The translations under genes and the position numbers were made by a program. DNA of 64,000 nucleotides from a bacterium (GTDB taxonomy: Bacteria > Patescibacteriota > Patescibacteriia > Patescibacteriales > JAKAJF01), in the NCBI GenBank assembly GCA_021788015.1, contig JAJYLD010000001.1, positions 209,581-273,580 of the forward strand. The letters are read 5' to 3'. Below are positions 856 through 56,602 of this stretch, one piece after another. The notes below the pieces were generated by a model. The model had not been told where the DNA came from and did no database searches. It saw nothing but the letters and a program-made list of their open reading frames with translations. Positions within the stretch are counted from its first letter, which is position 1. Every line of letters begins with the position of its first letter.

Positions 856-956
856 ACGAATCCTGTTAAGGGGTGACTCCAGCGGGATTGGATTTATTTT
901 TTAAGAATTAATCTATGCGGATCAAATTTTTTTGATTGCGATCTGCTTCTAACGGG
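856..956 (+). repeat. SCAIR element (start-codon-abutting inverted repeat), short form, copy 1
   Basis: The left arm ACGAAT-CCTGTTAAGGGG (856-873) is imperfectly complementary to the right arm TCTGCTTCTAACGGG (942-956). The right arm ends one base before ATG 957. The 3' part TTTTTGATTGCGATCTGCTTCTAACGGGATGAAA closely matches 44713-44745. Confidence 0.7.
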
Positions 957-14925: not shown

Positions 14926-15247
14926 ATGGATCCCGTTGGAAGCCGCGATCGCGCTTCCGGGGGGAGAATAAGAATAACCAAGAGAATCTAAAGATATAAT
15001 TTAGGCGGCTATGCAATATATCTTTTTGATCGCGATCCCGACACCGCAAGTCCTATCGGATTCGGCCACGGGACAAGTTCTGCCGCACAAAATTTATTAT
15101 TAACCACGTCTCGCCCCGTAGTCACCGAATTTACGAGGCGTACCCCGTTAGAAATCTTTGGGATAAACCAAAGTAGAAATTTTTTCAAGGACATATCAGT
15201 CCGGATGGAACTTCTAACGGGGTGTACTACAGGGGCATTCTAACGGG
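14926..15247 (+). repeat. SCAIR element, long form, copy A (carries a nested small copy)
   Basis: The left arm is ATGGAT-CCCGTTGGAAGC (14926-14943) and the right arm CATTCTAACGGG ends at 15247, before ATG 15248. The core from TTGATCGCGATCCCGA onward aligns with 49522-49665 and 54048-54188. Confidence 0.8.
15143..15222 (+). repeat. Nested mini-SCAIR inserted in the core of copy A
   Basis: CCCCGTTAGAA (15143-15153) is complementary to TTCTAACGGGG (15212-15222). It interrupts GAGG-TGTA-CTAC, which is contiguous in copies B and C, and is flanked by CGTA on the left and TGTA on the right. Confidence 0.7.
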
Positions 15248-20606: not shown

Positions 20607-20634
20607 TTGACACAATTTATTGTCATGGTATAAT
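20607..20634 (+). promoter_or_regulatory. Sigma-70-type promoter with extended -10 for the Fe-S operon
   Basis: TTGACA (20607-20612), a 16-nt spacer ending in TGg, then TATAAT (20629-20634). Confidence 0.65.
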
Positions 20635-20663
20635 AAAACCAACTAAATTAGTAGGAGATAATA

Positions 20664-20748
20664 ATACATCCCGTCAGAAGTCGTCGCTTTTGCGGGGTAA
20701 AAATTATTTTAATTTAGGCAGATTAATTAGAAGTCTGCTTCTAACGGG
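20664..20748 (+). repeat. SCAIR element, divergent short copy
   Basis: The left arm CATCCCGTCAGAAG (20667-20680) is complementary to the right arm CTTCTAACGGGATG, which ends at and includes ATG 20749. The right side carries the 19-mer GTCTGCTTCTAACGGGATG, identical to copies B and C. Confidence 0.7.
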
Positions 20749-21150
20749 ATGAAATTTTCGACAAAATCCACGTATGGCCTAAGGGCCATGATCAGGCTGG
20801 CGGAAAATTGGAAAAAAGAAAGTTTATCCTTATCGGTAATCGCAAAATCGGAAAACATTTCGCAAAAATACCTTGAAAGAATATTTGCTAGGTTAAAAAC
20901 AGCAAAATTGATCGAAAGTGAAAAGGGAGCGGGCGGCGGATATAAATTATCAAGATCTCCTTCTAAAATAAATATTTTGGAAATTATCGATGCATTGGAA
21001 GGAAAATTCGCGCCGTTTCATTGTTATACAAAAAGCGGAAAGGTTGTTTGTAGCACTTCCTGTAATTGCGGAGTTACTTTGGTTCTTAACCGCATTCAAA
21101 CCGGAATCGAAGATTCCTTAAGAAATATGAGCCTAAACCAGTTAAAATAA
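20749..21150 (+). CDS. Rrf2 family transcriptional regulator (IscR-like)
   Basis: MKFSTKSTYGLRAMIRLA winged-helix N-terminus, with C-terminal Cys residues (HCYTKSGKVVCSTSCNC). It lies at the head of the IscU/Nfu/desulfurase genes. Confidence 0.85.
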   Translation: MKFSTKSTYGLRAMIRLAENWKKESLSLSVIAKSENISQKYLERIFARLKTAKLIESEKGAGGGYKLSRSPSKINILEIIDALEGKFAPFHCYTKSGKVVCSTSCNCGVTLVLNRIQTGIEDSLRNMSLNQLK

Positions 21151-21151
21151 G

Positions 21152-21296
21152 AATCTCAAAACGCAAATCTCAAAACCAAAATTTAAAACCGAAAAACTGG
21201 ACAGAAAATACAATAAAAAATTTTTATTTTTATTCAAAGCAAAAATTTTTGAGATTTGAGTTATGGTTTTAAGTTTTGACATCTGAATTTTGAGAT
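21152..21296. repeat. AT-rich palindromic element (TCTCAAA word family), gene-less version
   Basis: 21153-21186 is identical to the reverse complement of 35378-35411 (34 nt). 21246-21296 resembles the reverse complement of 34981-35033. The two arms are mutually complementary. Confidence 0.75.
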
Positions 21297-21373
21297 CAAT
21301 GCTTGTAATTTTGTAAAAAATTCGTAATTTGTAGAAGAGGAAAATTAATATTAATTTTAATAAGCCAATACTT

Positions 21374-23423: not shown

Positions 23424-23437
23424 ATTCCGCTTTTTTT
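23410..23437. terminator. Bidirectional intrinsic terminator
   Basis: AAAAAGCGGAAT-AA-ATTCCGCTTTTT overlaps the desulfurase stop, between convergent genes. Confidence 0.75.
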
Positions 23438-23714
23438 AATGGAACGGATTGTTCAAACCGTCGATGTTACGAATGTATGTTTTTTGGTTTATTTTTTTTA
23501 TTATACCGTTGAATTTATTTATATCGAAAGTTTCGGTGGCGACTTCATTTTTTAACACCAAAACAATTTCAGATTGCGTAACCGATTCGTAAAAATTATT
23601 ATAAAGAAAGATGACGTCGAAATACAAAACGAAAATTATAAGCAAGACCAAAAGAAAATAAGTCGCCCCAGAAATTTTTCGGAATGAAATTTTTATTTTC
23701 CCCGCTATACGCAT
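23436..23714 (-). CDS. Small membrane-anchored protein at the distal end of the pilus operon
   Basis: 92 aa with one N-terminal TM (ATYFLLVLLIIFVLYFDVIFL). Its ATG directly follows a SCAIR right arm. Confidence 0.55.
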   Translation of the reverse strand: MRIAGKIKISFRKISGATYFLLVLLIIFVLYFDVIFLYNNFYESVTQSEIVLVLKNEVATETFDINKFNGIIKKINQKTYIRNIDGLNNPFH

Positions 23715-23807
23715 CCGTTAGAAGCGGATTTCAATCATTTTTGATTATACAAATCCGCATAAATAATGATTAAATTTTATCCCGGTCGAAGCGTGCTTCT
23801 AACGGGG
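23715..23807 (-). repeat. SCAIR element, short divergent copy on the minus strand
   Basis: Read on the minus strand: CCCCGTTAGAAGC (23807-23795) ... CCGCTTCTAACGG (23727-23715), immediately followed by ATG (23714-23712). The internal hairpin is GCGGATTT/AAATCCGC. Confidence 0.7.
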
Positions 23808-28437: not shown

Positions 28438-28498
28438 AAATTTAACTCGAGGATCGCAATTAATTTTAAAACTCAAATGTCAAATCCCAAAACAGTTT

Positions 28499-34975: not shown

Positions 34976-34980
34976 ATAAA

Positions 34981-35418
34981 ATCTCAAAACTCAAATGTCA
35001 AATCTCGAAACTGCAACTCAAAACCAAAAAACAGATGTAAAGATGAGAGCCTATCATTTTTCGATCCGTGTTATAAAGTTCATGGATTCTCTGCCGAATA
35101 AAAGAATTTTTGGATAATCGCAGGCCAACTATTAAGATCGGTAACCTCGATCGGAGCAAATATTATCGAAGCGAAATCGTCGTCATCGAAAAAAGATTTT
35201 ATTAAGTTTTATGAAATCGCTTTAAAATCGTCAAATGAAAGTAAGTATTGTTCGGATTATTGAGAGACGCCACGAATACAGACAAGGTAAAGTCAATGAA
35301 TTATTGCAAGAAACGAAAGAAATATCAAAAATACTCGGTGCCAGTCTGCTCACGCTTAAAAATAAAAGATTTTAGCTTTAAATTTTGGTTTTGAGATTTG
35401 CGTTTTGAGATTTGAGAT
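34981..35418 (+). mobile_element. Palindrome-flanked cassette carrying a degraded four-helix-bundle protein gene
   Basis: Arm 34981-35033 and arm 35378-35418 are mutually complementary TCTCAAA-word sequences. Both are shared, in inverted orientation, with the gene-less locus at 21152-21296. Confidence 0.5.
35043..35375 (+). pseudogene. Four-helix-bundle protein (23S rRNA intervening-sequence protein family), frameshifted
   Basis: Three frames together read MRAYHFSIRVIKFMDSLPNKRIF / IIAGQLLRSVTSIGANIIEAKSSSSKKDFIKFYEIALKSSNESKY / VNELLQETKEISKILGASLLTLKNKRF. This matches the family pattern (QL.RS..SIGANI.E....S.KDF) but needs at least two frameshifts. Confidence 0.7.
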
Positions 35419-35425
35419 TAATATC

Positions 35426-43059: not shown

Positions 43060-44598
43060 ATGGCGATAATCTTTATTTTTTTGCTTATTTTGGTCGCTTC
43101 CGTCTTCACTCCCCAGTATATTTTATTTTTATTGGTTCTAAATCTTTTCGCCGGACTTTTTCTGTCTCTCTCCCAAATAATAATCGCTTTGCTGCCGCAC
43201 GCAAAGCCTCTTCATAAACAATTGAATTCGCAACCGTTCGTTTCGATTTTCGTTCCCGCCTATAACGAACCTCCAGCGATTTTGATGCAAACGCTGGAAA
43301 CCCTTTCAAAATTGAGATATGACAATTTTGAAGTTTTGGTCATAGACAATAACACCGAAGATCCGGATATTTGGAAACCGGTGGAAGCGTTTACAAAAAC
43401 GCTCGGAGAAAAGTTTCGTTTCTTTCATGTCGATCGCCTTTCCGGTTTTAAAGCCGGCGCGCTCAATTACCTTATAAAATACATGGAAAAGAAATCGGAA
43501 TATGTGGCCGTAATCGACGCCGATTATCTCGTCCATTCCTATTTTTTGACAACCGCTTTGTCATATTTCACGAATAAAGACATAGCTCTCGTGCAATTTC
43601 CGCAGCAATACCGCAATCGCATCAAAAAGAATCAGGCCATAGCCGACGAATACAGACATTTTTTCGGTATTTACATGAATATGGCCAATCATCTCGACTG
43701 CGTTCCCTCGACCGGTACCGTAAGTATTTATAAGTCGAACGTTTTGCGCCAAATCGGCGGTTTTCGGGGCGAGGCGCTTACGGAAGACGCCGATATCGGA
43801 CTTAGAATTTACGGAGCGGGTTATCGCGGGATATTTGTCGACCGACCGATCGGTTACGGTTTGATGCCTTACGACCTTGAAGCTTACCGGAAGCAAAAAT
43901 GGAGATGGGCGTTCGGAAACGCGCAATCGATAAAAACTCTTTTTTCTCTGTTTGGGAAAATTCCGTTCAGGTCCTGGCTAGGATTTCTTATCCATCTTAC
44001 GGCATGGGATCATTTGAATTTCTTACCATTCGCCGTTTTGGCCGCTTATTCCGTCGTTTTGCTGCCGAACATTCCGGTAACGCCCACGCATAGGCTTCTG
44101 CTTGAAATCGCTTCTTTGTCGATTTTTGTCACCTTGATATCCAAATTGATTCTTATTCGAGTGGCTTTGCGGAACCAGCCGAATTCTTTATCGCGTTCTT
44201 TGCGGGCTTTCGGAGTCCATATCGGCATGACTTTTTTGTATTCCGAAGCATGGCTTACCTATATTCTGCGCATGAAATTCACTTTTGAACGAACAAACAA
44301 ATTTATTTTTGCGAAAATGCCGAGCCTTTTGAAAAATTCGTACAAAGAGCTTGTCCTGGGATTATGGTTTTTGATCGGGATGGTTGAGGCTATCTTCTGG
44401 GGTACAAGAATAATAACGGTCGTCGCTTATTTTGTCTCGTCGATAATTTTATTTTCCGTTTACTACGTGTATTGGAAAATTTATCCGACAAAATCATATT
44501 CGAAAAAAATATTTGAAAACACGGAAAAGAAATATCTTCCTTATATCAAGTCAACGACTCACAATGTAAATTACGAATTAACCGAAGCAAGATTATGA
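43060..44598 (+). CDS. Membrane-embedded processive GT2 synthase (cellulose/chitin/hyaluronan-synthase-like)
   Basis: N-terminal TMs, a GT-A core (VIDNNTED, DADY, TEDADIG), then the QxxRW motif (RKQKWRWAFGN) followed by about six TM helices. Confidence 0.8.
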   Translation: MAIIFIFLLILVASVFTPQYILFLLVLNLFAGLFLSLSQIIIALLPHAKPLHKQLNSQPFVSIFVPAYNEPPAILMQTLETLSKLRYDNFEVLVIDNNTEDPDIWKPVEAFTKTLGEKFRFFHVDRLSGFKAGALNYLIKYMEKKSEYVAVIDADYLVHSYFLTTALSYFTNKDIALVQFPQQYRNRIKKNQAIADEYRHFFGIYMNMANHLDCVPSTGTVSIYKSNVLRQIGGFRGEALTEDADIGLRIYGAGYRGIFVDRPIGYGLMPYDLEAYRKQKWRWAFGNAQSIKTLFSLFGKIPFRSWLGFLIHLTAWDHLNFLPFAVLAAYSVVLLPNIPVTPTHRLLLEIASLSIFVTLISKLILIRVALRNQPNSLSRSLRAFGVHIGMTFLYSEAWLTYILRMKFTFERTNKFIFAKMPSLLKNSYKELVLGLWFLIGMVEAIFWGTRIITVVAYFVSSIILFSVYYVYWKIYPTKSYSKKIFENTEKKYLPYIKSTTHNVNYELTEARL

Positions 44599-44739
44599 AT
44601 TCCATTAGAAGCTCAGCCGGAAACGGACGAGCGCGATTGCTTCGTTGGAAAGACAATAGAAATAAAAAATAAAGGATTAAAGATTAACTCGAGCGGATAA
44701 GCAGTTCAAACTTTTTGATCGCGATTCGCTTCCAATGGG
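44595..44739 (+). repeat. SCAIR element, short form, with compensated arm variants
   Basis: The left arm is ATGAAT-TCCATTAGAAGC (44595-44612) and the right arm GCTTCCAATGGG (44728-44739) ends before ATG 44740. The internal TTTTTGATCGCGAT matches the start of the long-form core. Confidence 0.7.
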
Positions 44740-45777
44740 ATGAAAATAGCTCTCCTTGCTCCGCTTTGGAAAAAAATTCCTCCCGAGAAATACGGCGGAT
44801 CGGAATTGGTTGTCGCCAATTTGGCAAAAGGATTAACCGAACTCGGGCATGATGTGACAACCTTGGCCTGCGGCGGATCAGAAGTATCCGGCAAACTTAT
44901 TCCTGTTATTGAAAAGCCGATGTATGATCTCGTTGGCGGTTTCGATTGGAGCGGAATCAAGCAATATGAATTTTTGTCTTTTTTTGAATTGGGCAAGCGA
45001 ATAAAAGATTTCGATATCGTTCATAACCACATGGGTTTTCATCCAATCGCTCTCGCTCCGTTTCTGGATATTCCGTTTGTCACGACGCTCCATAGCAGTT
45101 TGCCGCCGGATTTTCCGTTTTTGGCCGAAGCTTTTCGCGAATATCCGTTTGTCTCAATCAGCGAGGCGCAAAGAAGATTGGCGCCAGACTTGAATTATGT
45201 CGGAACGGTATATCACGGCATCGACGTGAAATCCTTTCGGCCGCGACCTGATGGCGACGGGAACGGTTTTGTCTTTATGGGCACCATGTCTCGCAATAAA
45301 GGCATCGATATCGCGGTCAAAGCCGCTCGCGCGCTCGGAGTAAAATTGACTATCGCGGGAGAAATAAGAGAAAGCGACGGGTCCTTTCTTGAAAAGGAAG
45401 TTTTTCCCTATGTTGACGGGAAAAACATACAACTTGTCGGAGAAGTCGATCATGAAGAAAAAAATCGTTTGTTTGCCGAGGCCGACGGCGTTCTTTTTCC
45501 ATCACGCTGGAACGAAGCCTTCGGATTGGTTATGGCGGAGGCGCTCGCTTGCGGCACGCCCGTTGTTGCGCTAAACAACGGAGCGGTTCCGGAAGTTATT
45601 AGAAACGGAAAAACGGGTTTTATCGTCGAAAACGAGCGGGAATTCACGGAAGCGATGGAAAAAGTCGGCAAAATTTCAAGAGAAGTTTGCCGCTCCGAAG
45701 CGGAACGGCGCTTCGATATTTCCGCGATGGCGGAAAATTATGATTACGTATATAAAAAATTAATCCAAACAAAATGA
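44740..45777 (+). CDS. Glycosyltransferase family 4
   Basis: MKIALLAPLWKKIPPEKYGGSELVV, and C-terminal PSRWNEAFGLVMAEALACGTPVVA. Confidence 0.85.
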   Translation: MKIALLAPLWKKIPPEKYGGSELVVANLAKGLTELGHDVTTLACGGSEVSGKLIPVIEKPMYDLVGGFDWSGIKQYEFLSFFELGKRIKDFDIVHNHMGFHPIALAPFLDIPFVTTLHSSLPPDFPFLAEAFREYPFVSISEAQRRLAPDLNYVGTVYHGIDVKSFRPRPDGDGNGFVFMGTMSRNKGIDIAVKAARALGVKLTIAGEIRESDGSFLEKEVFPYVDGKNIQLVGEVDHEEKNRLFAEADGVLFPSRWNEAFGLVMAEALACGTPVVALNNGAVPEVIRNGKTGFIVENEREFTEAMEKVGKISREVCRSEAERRFDISAMAENYDYVYKKLIQTK

Positions 45778-49265: not shown

Positions 49266-49348
49266 AATCTCAAATCTCAAAAAGCAAAAATTAAAACTGT
49301 AACTTAAAACTAAAAAGTTTTGAGATTTGCCATTTGAGTTTTGAGATT
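49266..49348. repeat. AT-rich palindromic element (TCTCAAA word family), third locus
   Basis: AATCTCAAATCTCAAAAAGC ... GCCATTTGAGTTTTGAGATT form complementary arms, using the same words as 21152-21296 and 34981-35418. Confidence 0.65.
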
Positions 49349-49402: not shown

Positions 49403-49432
49403 CCTCAAATTATGTTAAAATAAATTCATGAA
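49403..49432 (+). promoter_or_regulatory. Sigma-70-type promoter with extended -10 just upstream of SCAIR copy B
   Basis: TTGCAA (49403-49408), an 18-nt spacer ending in TGt, then TAAAAT (49427-49432). The predicted start lies within a few nt of the element's left edge at 49439. Confidence 0.55.
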
Positions 49433-49438
49433 TCCCGT

Positions 49439-49665
49439 TTTAGAAGCCGCGGTAGCTTTCACGGGAAGAATAGGTCTGATGTGAAATAAATTAAAATTTT
49501 TAACTTAGCAGATATAAATCAAATTTGATCGCGATCCCGATACAACAAATCCTGTCGGATTTGGCTACGGGACAAGTTCTATCGCACAAAACTTATTTTT
49601 AACCACGTCTCGCCCCGTAGTCACCGAGTTCACGAGGTGTACTACGGGGGTCTGCTTCTAACGGG
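49439..49665 (+). repeat. SCAIR element, long form, copy B
   Basis: The left arm is ATGAAT-CCCGTTTTAGAAGC and the right arm GTCTGCTTCTAACGGG ends at 49665, before ATG 49666. The core at 49522-49665 is nearly identical to 54048-54188. Confidence 0.8.
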
Positions 49666-53213: not shown

Positions 53214-54017
53214 ATGAAAATCAAAGCCAGTTTACATATTCATACCAAAGAAGATAAAAAAGAGGGTTTTTTTATAAGCTACTCGATTTATGATTTAATT
53301 GATCATGCGAAATTGTTAGGCTTCAGGGTCTTGGCCTTGACGACCCATAAAACTTTTGTTTATAAGGAAGAGTACGGAAAGTACGCGGAAGAGAAAGGCA
53401 TTTTACTAATCCCCGGAATCGAACTTGATATGCATGCGCCGTTTTTAAAACGATGCCATATTCTCGTTTTAAATTGCGAAAAAGACATCGAGAAAGTAAA
53501 AACATTTTCTGATCTGAAAAAATACAAAAAAAAGAATCCGAAAATTTTTATCATCGCCCCTCATCCCAATTTCGACTATTTCAATTCGATGGGCATGCGC
53601 AATTTGAAAAAATATATCGGACTTTTTGACGCGATCGAACATTCTTGGTTTTTTTCAACATTCTTGAATTTTAACAGACGCGCGGGAAGAATCGCAAAAA
53701 AATTCAAAAAGCCCTTTATCGCCACGGCCGATTGTCATACCCTTGATTTTTTCAATTCCGATTACATAACCCTTGACTTAAAAAAAATGGACGCCGATTC
53801 CGTATTCAAAAAATTAAGAGAAAGAAAGTTTGAAAATGTGACCAAACGAAAAAAATTCTTGAAAATAATTTTTTATTATCTTAAAGAATTTATCTTTAAA
53901 TATTACGGATTGCTTTTGATCGTAAAAATTAAGAACATTTTAGAAAAAGATACGAATCCCGTTAGAAGCCGCGATCGCTTTAATGGGGAAAAAATAAAAC
54001 ATGAAAAAATTTCATAA
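53214..54017 (+). CDS. PHP family metal-dependent phosphoesterase
   Basis: The ATG at 53214 gives MKIKASLHIHTKED (HxH motif), with later TTH, APHP and ADCH metal-ligand motifs. The last 22 codons run through the left arm of SCAIR copy C. Confidence 0.7.
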   Translation: MKIKASLHIHTKEDKKEGFFISYSIYDLIDHAKLLGFRVLALTTHKTFVYKEEYGKYAEEKGILLIPGIELDMHAPFLKRCHILVLNCEKDIEKVKTFSDLKKYKKKNPKIFIIAPHPNFDYFNSMGMRNLKKYIGLFDAIEHSWFFSTFLNFNRRAGRIAKKFKKPFIATADCHTLDFFNSDYITLDLKKMDADSVFKKLRERKFENVTKRKKFLKIIFYYLKEFIFKYYGLLLIVKIKNILEKDTNPVRSRDRFNGEKIKHEKIS

Positions 54018-54188
54018 TAATATGCAGATTATAGAATCAAAATTTTTTTTGATCGCGATCCCGATACAACAAATCCTGTCGGATTTGGCTACGGGACAAG
54101 TTCTATCGCACAAAACTTATTTTAACTACGTCTCGCCCCGTAGTCACCGAGTTTACGAGGTGTACTACCGGGGTCTGCTTCTAACGGG
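53952..54188 (+). repeat. SCAIR element, long form, copy C
   Basis: The left arm ACGAAT-CCCGTTAGAAGC lies inside the 3' end of the PHP gene, and the right arm GTCTGCTTCTAACGGG ends at 54188, before ATG 54189. Confidence 0.8.
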
Positions 54189-56407: not shown

Positions 56408-56478
56408 AGCCCTCTGTCAGAATCGAACTGACGTATGTGGTTTACGATACCACTGTTCTGCCACTGAACTAAGAGGGC
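56408..56478 (-). tRNA. tRNA-Thr (anticodon CGU)
   Basis: Minus-strand cloverleaf: acceptor GCCCTCT/AGAGGGC, D arm GTTC-AGTGGCA-GAAC, anticodon arm GTGGT-ATCGTAA-ACCAC, T arm GTCAG-TTCGATT-CTGAC. CCA is not encoded. Confidence 0.9.
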
Positions 56479-56531: not shown

Positions 56532-56602
56532 AGCAGGATACGAGAATCGAACTCGCGCCCTCTGCTTGGGAAGCAGACATACTGCCACTGTACTAATCCT
56601 GC
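56532..56602 (-). tRNA. tRNA-Gly (anticodon CCC)
   Basis: Minus-strand cloverleaf: acceptor GCAGGAT/ATCCTGC, D arm GTAC-AGTGGCA-GTAT, anticodon arm TCTGC-TTCCCAA-GCAGA, T arm GCGAG-TTCGATT-CTCGT, discriminator U. CCA is not encoded. Confidence 0.9.

Follow-up and report, generated by a model that had tools for sequence, protein, structure and literature searches.

In a 64,000-nucleotide stretch of a Patescibacteria contig (JAJYLD010000001.1; the whole analysed stretch is called the window below), a short palindromic sequence at positions 44595–44739 lies between a GT2 glycosyltransferase gene (43060–44598) and the open reading frame (ORF) of a GT4 glycosyltransferase (44740–45777, plus strand), which was assigned by Pfam scan and is called at the 44740 ATG in independent assemblies. 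[quoted passage not shown] All of its parts lie on the plus strand. The left direct repeat, ATGAA at 44595–44599, is the GT4 gene's ancestral start codon and overlaps the TGA stop codon (44596–44598) of the upstream GT2 gene. The left terminal inverted repeat, L, follows at 44600–44612 and reads T + TCCATTAGAAGC, against a family consensus of T + CCCGTTAGAAGC. In the predicted minimum-free-energy RNA fold of this copy it pairs with 44728–44740, the right terminal inverted repeat R2, which is identified by arm pairing and consists of GCTTCCAATGGG (44728–44739) and a terminal A. That A is the A of the working start codon, the ATG at 44740 directly following the arm, and the right direct repeat is supplied by the first five nucleotides of the GT4 ORF (ATGAA), which opens at the hairpin's 3′ foot. 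Inside the arms, L-ext (CGCGATT, 44632–44638), the 5′ strand of a second helix, is complementary to GATCGCG at 44717–44723 within R-ext (44717–44725), the GATCGCGAT junction and 3′ strand of the same helix; L-ext is recognised by its family covariation with R-ext and by the fold, R-ext by covariation. Between them lie R1 (GCTTCGTTGGAA, 44639–44650), a proximal, imperfect copy of the right arm seen in the sequence, which can pair with L through GAAGC/GCTTC and TCCA/TGGA, and an A-rich variable interior (44651–44716), whose family motif ..ATTAAC..GCGGAT / GCAG comes from family alignments. A local hairpin GCTC...GAGC (44611–44632) appears only in the RNA fold prediction and is specific to this copy. 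L, R1, the junction and R2 are exactly as quoted in the initial annotation and are confirmed by position; the TCCA/TGGA complementarity of its local L:R1 hairpin is seen directly in the sequence, and the parallel it drew between the 3′ portion and 929–962 is real.

The palindrome is absent from related loci. A metagenome search with the GT4 protein recovered 22 orthologous GT2–GT4 junctions at 55–83% amino acid identity, and the element is missing from all 22. In these empty junctions the upstream gene ends 0–40 nt before the start, often in an ATGA overlap, and the sequence continues as ATGA(A/G)AATAGC. The window junction reads ...ATGAA / T-TCCATT...AATGGG-A / TGAAAATAGC, so that the 44595 copy represents an insertion into ...ATGAAAATAGC with duplication of ATGAA. 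The insertion took place at the ATGA stop/start junction between the two genes, and the terminal A of the element together with the duplicated TG rebuilds an ATG at the 3′ foot of the hairpin, leaving the ORF intact. It escaped the initial annotation, which had described the arms as pairing strands, that these arms bound an inserted mobile element as its terminal inverted repeats.

An exact-pattern scan of species-representative genomes with CTGCTTCTAACGGGATG gave at least 113 loci, and the family counts reported here rest on the matches listed. With the window copies, these Patescibacteria loci make a family set of about 150 copies; three-digit labels such as L047 denote loci among the matches listed, and a bare L denotes the left arm. 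The matches listed come nearly all from metagenome-assembled genomes of Patescibacteria and span several classes, including the Nomura-, Kaiser-, Zambryski-, Taylor-, Lipton-, Sungi-, Terry-, Jorgensen-, Harrison-, Moran-, Kerfeld-, Buchanan- and Levybacteria and Microgenomatus. An L arm is present about 90 nt upstream in some 100 of the 118 pattern matches listed, and the family consensus reads ATG(nn) T-CCCGTTAGAAGC CGCG(A/G)TC.. [A-rich, ~70 nt] GA(T/C)CGCGA(T/C) CT GCTTCTAACGGG-ATG, with copy lengths of 85–250 bp. The −1/+1 terminal pair is T:A in 125 of 133 copies. The sense strand of the interior carries more A than T (3613 versus 2843), GGG triplets concentrate 10–25 nt after L, and an R1-type local hairpin is found in 38 of 130 elements (about 30%), copies from the window included. 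The distribution is patchy: there are zero copies in 252 kb around GT4 homologues, a further copy turns up roughly every 27 kb in pattern-selected loci, 8 lie in the 64 kb of the window, and two or more copies occur in 30 of the 113 listed 8-kb loci. No description of the element was found in the literature searched or in Rfam 15, and IMG/VR returned no exact match and no phage copy.

Duplications of the target are seen across the family. When the 4–6 nt to the left of the −1 base were compared with ATG and the first ORF nucleotides, 97 of 137 copies proved to carry an exact direct repeat of 4–6 nt; shuffling the partners gave 39 (0/1000 shuffles reaching the observed value). Among genes that do not begin with ATGAA the repeat is present in 43 of 64, against about 12 by shuffling. 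Copies located off start codons are flanked by unrelated 4-bp repeats (CCTG, TCGA, CAAG, (C/T)GTA), and their terminal pair is C:G or G:C rather than T:A; in L055 a C:G terminal pair turns ATG into GTG. These observations are most simply modelled as an element N-CCCGTTAG...CTAACGGG-N′ that makes a mostly 4-bp duplication. Tandem arrays of the form R2-ATGAAT-L occur in L005, L031 and L051. A short member at L047:1277–1351 (minus strand) lies in-frame and stop-free inside a ribD-like deaminase/reductase ORF; the insert of 74 nt with its 4-nt duplication makes up 26 codons, ...RVD-PVRSRPPTAVGVTTGTSGRLASNG-VD-LAR.... In two species (L042:4353–4479 and the region of L073:5624–5752, minus strand) orthologous genes with 81% amino acid identity both carry elements, with identical arms, the same ATGTA repeat and unrelated interiors; either the start codon was struck twice independently, or the interiors were exchanged via the arms. 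Small size (MITEs measure less than about 300–500 bp), lack of coding capacity, terminal inverted repeats, target duplications with empty sites and dispersed copies are all features that the family shares with MITEs, and the invariant termini would be the recognition site of a putative mobilising enzyme.

The two termini and the second internal helix are kept complementary throughout the family, and the outermost 8 bp are also fixed in sequence. The closing helix of 13 bp, T-CCCGTTAGAAGC / GCTTCTAACGGG-A, is common to about 150 copies. Once paired, these termini would give a hairpin, either as part of the transcript or as single-stranded DNA. Copies were detected by the outer cores only, which leaves the inner positions unbiased. 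Arm positions 0–11 are at least 93% Watson–Crick in 133 copies. Across 133 distinct elements, position 10 is occupied by A-T in 120, G-C in 11, T-A in one and G.T in one, with no mismatch; position 11 by G-C in 105, A-T in 19 and A.C in seven; and position 12 by C-G in 103, T-A in 21, A-T in two, G-C in one and T.G in four. At each of these three positions, none of 1000 partner shuffles reaches the observed value. More than ten arm variants, each perfectly matched, are represented (GAAAT/ATTTC, GAGAC/GTCTC, GAGGC/GCCTC and others), and compensated changes in the inner 4 bp number 60, against 17 one-sided ones. The outer 8 bp contain four compensated double changes where 0.14 are expected (0/2000 shuffles). 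The second helix covaries in the same manner, with CGCGATC/GATCGCG, CGCGGTC/GACCGCG, CACGATC/GATCGTG and CGCGGAC/GTCCGCG as its matched states. The GATCGCGAT junction, whose constancy in short forms the initial annotation suggested checking, is not always kept and covaries with its helix partner. In an alignment of 51 sequences, both partners have changed in 72 cells, where shuffling gives 20.1 (0/500). In the same alignment 92.2% of cells of the named structure are paired (86.4% in shuffles), 98.6% for the 13-bp repeat, and the covariation score is 0.231, compared with 0.133 in shuffles and at most 0.088 with slid partners.

The 44595 copy taken singly carries less weight. The initial annotation went too far in considering its pairing to be preserved: this is true of the compensated change at position 4 of L:R2 (G-C to A-T); of the other two changed pairs, position 1 has become a U.G wobble (C to T, in L only), and position 7 an A.C mismatch, where R2 alone has changed (T to C) and nothing compensates for it. 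By a hand estimate, one matching pair with two transitions per 12-nt arm has a chance of roughly 10–30%, so that this copy by itself is not significant. Its RNA fold z-score is −2.2. It is one of the four compensated double changes in the outer 8 bp of the family. Selection on structure, proposed from this copy, is supported for arm complementarity family-wide. The further claim that structure is selected rather than a protein-binding word is not supported, as the outer 8 bp CCCGTTAG/CTAACGGG are nearly invariant over many Patescibacteria lineages, which implies a sequence-specific reader as well. The compensated pair of the 44595 copy may reflect a constraint on terminal complementarity, and would have been passed on by a variant master copy or re-established once a mutation had occurred.

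Several observations weigh against a plain MITE. The element adjoins the start codon with a zero spacer in about 90% of copies, which is unexpected for an ordinary MITE, and among copies adjoining an ORF of at least 60 codons, 117 are in forward and 2 in mirrored orientation, which is atypical of elements that insert either way. Upstream offsets are rare (13 nt in L088, 5 nt in L037). With a zero spacer, a polarity fixed at 98% and few harmless offsets, either targeting or function must be added to the MITE interpretation. The direct repeats vary in length from 3 to 5 bp (4 to 6 with the A included), which is unusual for a single transposase and would fit microhomology-mediated copying too. 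As for an autonomous element, no matching-arm pair 0.34–4 kb apart was found in 917 kb of fetched DNA. The identity of termini across classes could reflect function and not recognition by a transposase. Among non-Watson–Crick pairs, G.U is no more frequent than A.C (10 versus 15 in one count, 13 versus 17 in another); with no preference for G.U, the counts give RNA no advantage over single-stranded DNA or over concerted evolution of the inverted repeats. Finally, all RNA-level steps are inferred, and confidence in any specific mechanism by which the element would act on expression is low.

The window holds eight family copies in its 64 kb, seven at start codons and one nested, and in all seven R2 adjoins the start codon of an ORF. 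Arm-like 12-mers number 15 in the window, against 3.45 expected, and none of 100 shuffles reaches 15. Copy A (860–956, plus strand) has a degenerate L (ATCCTGTTAA...), and its R2 (945–956) adjoins ATG 957 of a GT4 glycosyltransferase gene. Copy B (14926–15247, plus strand) is a long form with left repeat ATGGA, L at 14932–14943, a core from about 15037 and R2 at 15236–15247, which adjoins ATG 15248 of an S41 peptidase gene. Its core is interrupted by the nested short member C-CCCGTTAGAAAT...ACTTCTAACGGG-G (15143–15222, plus strand), which is flanked by the repeat (C/T)GTA and sits where uninterrupted cores read GAGG(T/C)GTACTAC. Copy C (20664–20748, plus strand), a short form, has L at 20670–20681 and R2 at 20737–20748 adjoining ATG 20749 of an Rrf2 regulator gene; a promoter-like site TTGACA-N17-TATAAT lies upstream of its L at 20608–20636, and its RNA fold z-score is −5.2. 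The R2 of copy D (23714–23807, minus strand), GCTTCTAACGG, adjoins the ATG of a 92-aa ORF (23436–23714) downstream of pilO. Two further long forms are found on the plus strand. Copy F (49428–49665) has left repeat ATGAA, L at 49434–49447 with a TT insertion, a core at about 49536–49650 and R2 at 49654–49665 adjoining ATG 49666 of a gene for an unknown protein. Copy G (53952–54188) has a left repeat decayed to ACGAA, L at 53958–53969, a core at about 54060–54173 and R2 at 54177–54188 adjoining ATG 54189 of a GT2-like gene, with an RNA fold z-score of −5.6. In the public assembly the gene next to copy F is called from 49729 (466 aa) and not from the element-adjoining ATG 49666 (487 aa). This call lies 63 nt too far downstream, and the element may mislead start-codon prediction.

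The core of the long forms is about 115 nt in length and lies between GATCGCGA(T/C) and CTGC. It is present in five elements from three genomes, namely the three window copies (15037–15235, 49536–49650 and 54060–54173), L037 (positions 1–113) and L112 (minus strand, upstream of the match). It contains two predicted hairpins, with a single covarying pair among the five sequences, too small a set on which to judge its structure, and has no Rfam match. The 3′ hairpin of the core, CCCCGTAGTCACC...GGTGTACTACCGGGG, looks like the arms of the element itself on a small scale. In copies F and G the junction, core and R2 (the 3′ 135 nt) are 97% identical, the left part is about 70% identical, and the flanks are unrelated. 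The initial annotation took short forms for long forms that had lost the core; as the core-less form makes up about 95% of some 140 copies, the core more probably represents a module that was added or can be exchanged than a part that was lost.

The genes downstream of the element are unrelated housekeeping genes, among them pilC (five times), topA, ssb and the trigger factor gene tig (three times each), aminoacyl-tRNA synthetase genes, ftsW, murG and the gene for H+-pyrophosphatase, and the fixed polarity extends to essential genes. The left ATG sits where the native start is expected: in about one copy in four, strong −10-like boxes peak 5–9 nt upstream of it, and a long ORF ends at most 40 nt upstream in 53 of 102. 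The element is probably co-transcribed with the gene, given that promoter-like −10 boxes, or else an upstream ORF, are located left of L. Most window genes have no Shine–Dalgarno sequence and have A/U-rich leaders (for example, upstream of 3657, 4558, 22185 and 31578), so that its absence before the working AUG is not special. Promoter-like TATAAT boxes occur 10–40 nt upstream of several window gene starts. Predicted RNA folds of the copies close with the L:R2 helix and the second helix. In the mRNA, the L:R2 helix would mask the 13 nt preceding the working AUG, and the masking might be lifted when R1, or ribosomes starting at the old left AUG, hold L; the A-rich interior might act as a ribosome landing region. 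Cleavage at the helix foot and transfer of ribosomes across the helix are possible alternatives. We favour a passive-to-modulatory role of the element.

A more far-reaching possibility is that the hairpin homes to start codons, is 'self-healing' and has become part of Patescibacteria gene expression, acting on roughly 10% of genes, essential ones included; we consider it improbable. Insertion would occur after the A of the start codon, with the terminal A of the element rebuilding the AUG, and the 13-bp helix would bring the old AUG with its native initiation region beside the new one. Ribosomes might then be handed across the helix foot in a shunt- or bypass-like manner, or the hairpin might be cut off, giving an mRNA that starts at the AUG. 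If true, this would constitute a phylum-specific mode of control of translation initiation.

Other routes to expression were tried and rejected. In 80% of copies the frame opening at the left ATG is cut short by a stop, at a median of 12 codons, and zero in-frame fusions are seen, which speaks against a coupled upstream ORF as a general mechanism. Left-ATG frames ending at the TAA inside R2 number 17 of 105, against 9.8 expected, and the excess comes from one related subfamily. In this Nomurabacteria-type subfamily (L018, L034, L075, L087, L105, L115) the interior frame is open, reading M K x N I E K I N N L K Y Q I R E L I A I C F, and runs as far as the TAA within R2, 4 nt short of the gene ATG. 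Coding constraint on this frame is doubtful, as substitutions are not concentrated at third codon positions. An internal outward promoter is discounted by the lack of directional signal in −10-like hexamers (188 versus 190 on the two strands). Intron-like excision is rejected on two copies: L088 lies 13 nt upstream of pheS, outside the gene, and the in-frame, stop-free copy in L047 speaks for the element being translated.

Closest among known systems are the bacterial MITEs active within transcripts, namely the Correia, ERIC (enterobacterial repetitive intergenic consensus) and RPE (Rickettsia palindromic element) families. Correia elements (CREE) of Neisseria are non-coding MITEs of about 100–200 bp, bounded by terminal inverted repeats and flanked by short target duplications; many of them directly precede genes, the elements are co-transcribed, the RNA hairpin is cleaved by RNase III, and adjacent expression is affected (PMC10969869). 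They differ from the Patescibacteria family in being confined to one genus, inserting in both orientations, carrying outward promoters and an IHF site and not lying at the start codon, whereas the Patescibacteria duplication includes the start codon, with zero spacing to the AUG, fixed polarity, no directional promoter signal and a spread over several classes. Correia elements duplicate TA. ERIC elements, or intergenic repeat units (IRU), of Enterobacteriaceae and Vibrionaceae are imperfect palindromes of about 127 bp that are transcribed in operons, are conserved in sequence across genera and affect mRNA in an orientation-dependent way (PMC10969869). They are found mostly in 3′ or intercistronic untranslated regions, have no start-codon duplication and are spread at the family level, whereas the Patescibacteria element lies at the AUG and is phylum-wide. 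RPEs are selfish elements of a reduced genome, tolerated where genes survive them, including in-frame within ORFs (PMC10969869). The L047 copy is likewise in-frame and stop-free; RPEs, however, are mostly translated insertions in genes, whereas about 90% of the Patescibacteria copies precede an ORF at its start codon. A further likeness is to the byp elements of Magnusiomyces mitochondria and the gap of T4 gene 60, which are mobile, hairpin-forming insertions between identical take-off and landing codons. These bypass elements are 27–55 nt long and lie inside ORFs, and bypassing has been shown experimentally. The Patescibacteria hairpin has an identical AUGnn on either side and brings the two together, but its sole intragenic copy found, that of L047, is in-frame and free of stops, which points to read-through rather than bypass.

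Among the alternatives to the MITE-like reading, a vertically inherited cis-regulatory leader RNA, riboswitch-like or acting as a translational operator, would have L, R1 and R2 as alternative strands that switch the start codon between a masked and an open state on a signal. The strong covariation in two helices, the position of R2 next to the AUG with fixed polarity and the alternative R1 hairpin in about 30% of copies all agree with such a leader, as does the orthologous pair L018/L105, whose interiors share 86% identity, compared with 57% for third codon positions. Vertical inheritance, however, sits poorly with the 22 empty orthologous junctions and with close relatives that lack the element, and a leader does not account for flanking direct repeats, which also accompany copies off start codons, or for tandem, nested and intragenic copies. 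The downstream genes have no common function, the variable, AT-rich interior contains no conserved unpaired core, and there is no Rfam family. We consider a leader RNA of this kind unlikely as the origin of the family; a secondarily acquired regulatory role is compatible with the mobile-element explanation.

We hold it equally unlikely that the family has spread without an enzyme, by template switching in replication, where the hairpin would stall synthesis and the nascent strand would copy a donor and return via ATG microhomology. ATG microhomology flanks every donor, so that the process would automatically target other start codons. The left junction varies (ATG plus 1 to 3 nt) while the right is always exactly CGGG/ATG, no transposase was found in the fetched DNA, and window copies F and G are mosaic, with the 97% identity of their 3′ 135 nt set against about 70% elsewhere, all of which speaks for it. 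Against it stand the copies off start codons, whose clean 4-bp repeats are unrelated to ATG and require a true duplication mechanism, and whose terminal pair becomes C:G or G:C; identical termini in distant classes suggest horizontal spread together with a recogniser.

Slightly less probable still is a recombination site of folded single-stranded DNA, of the attC or REPIN type, moved by a tyrosine recombinase or a RAYT-like HUH enzyme. The family shares with attC sites a structure kept more than the sequence and a build of conserved outer box with GTT/AAC, bulge (CT 5′ of R2), second covarying helix and variable terminal structure of 50–230 nt, and would act, like attC, as a folded single strand. 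The almost purely Watson–Crick pairing with no preference for G.U fits DNA, and the unrelated interiors of L042 and L073 at the same orthologous site with the same repeat could mean exchange through the arms. The order of the triplets is nevertheless reversed relative to the attC R boxes: the R″ box RYYYAAC on the 5′ side and the R′ box GTTRRRY on the 3′ side are absent, and the element has GTT on the 5′ side (CCCGTTAGAAGC) and AAC on the 3′ side (GCTTCTAACGGG) on both strands. Its copies lie upstream of ordinary chromosomal genes several kb apart and not downstream of genes, behind promoterless cassettes in an intI/attI-linked array, and the window annotation shows no integrase or cassette array. 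Membership in attC was rejected on these grounds. Tyrosine recombinases and HUH enzymes do not make flanking duplications, which also argue against membership in the REP/REPIN group, and no integrase or RAYT is seen in the window, where the genome is incomplete.

An invertible promoter segment, with invertase sites switching surface-polysaccharide and pilus genes on and off, is very improbable and largely refuted: inverted repeats do surround an AT-rich segment with many −10-like hexamers, and copies in the window do precede glycosyltransferase and pilus genes, but the polarity of 117 to 2 across about 100 independent assemblies rejects it, the 44595 locus has the element in the same orientation in three assemblies, the −10-like hexamers are equal on the two strands, the promoter-like site of copy C lies outside the repeats, many elements lie within operons and before housekeeping genes, and the window contains no recombinase.

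The window is otherwise an ordinary chromosome segment of the candidate phyla radiation (CPR) type, with mur/ftsW/mraY, type IV pilus, suf and glycosyltransferase genes. No transposase, recombinase, integrase or RAYT is seen in the annotation of its 64 kb, the genome being incomplete here. At gathering score, Rfam matches in the window are limited to two tRNA genes (56408–56478 and 56532–56602, minus strand); for the element, Rfam 15 gave no family match at that score and only chance-level matches at an E-value of at most 10, in two copies. A second, intergenic repeat family, unrelated to the mobile element, consists of A-rich units of about 14 nt (AATCTCAAAAC...) at 21138–21209, 28462–28493, 34980–35030 and 49273–49316. 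Inverse units (GTTTTGAGATTTG...) are located at 21266–21297, 35374–35419 and 49317–49348, often directly after the former, as at 49273–49348, and a unit with its inverse could form hairpins between genes.

Patescibacteria, or CPR, represent a large share of bacterial diversity, have tiny genomes, and little is known about how they control expression. In the window, about one gene in eight has a readily recognised element of MITE-like character directly against its start codon, in fixed orientation, and such placement is new as far as found in the literature searched and Rfam 15. Gene callers and RNA-motif screens will misread the loci of the element, as at ORF 49666. If the family is only selfish DNA, it provides a natural experiment on the tolerance of insertions in streamlined genomes and can serve to trace horizontal exchange between CPR lineages. 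Should it influence expression, it would represent an undescribed form of initiation or gating of translation in organisms largely without Shine–Dalgarno sequences, which is testable directly in the few genetically tractable Saccharibacteria.

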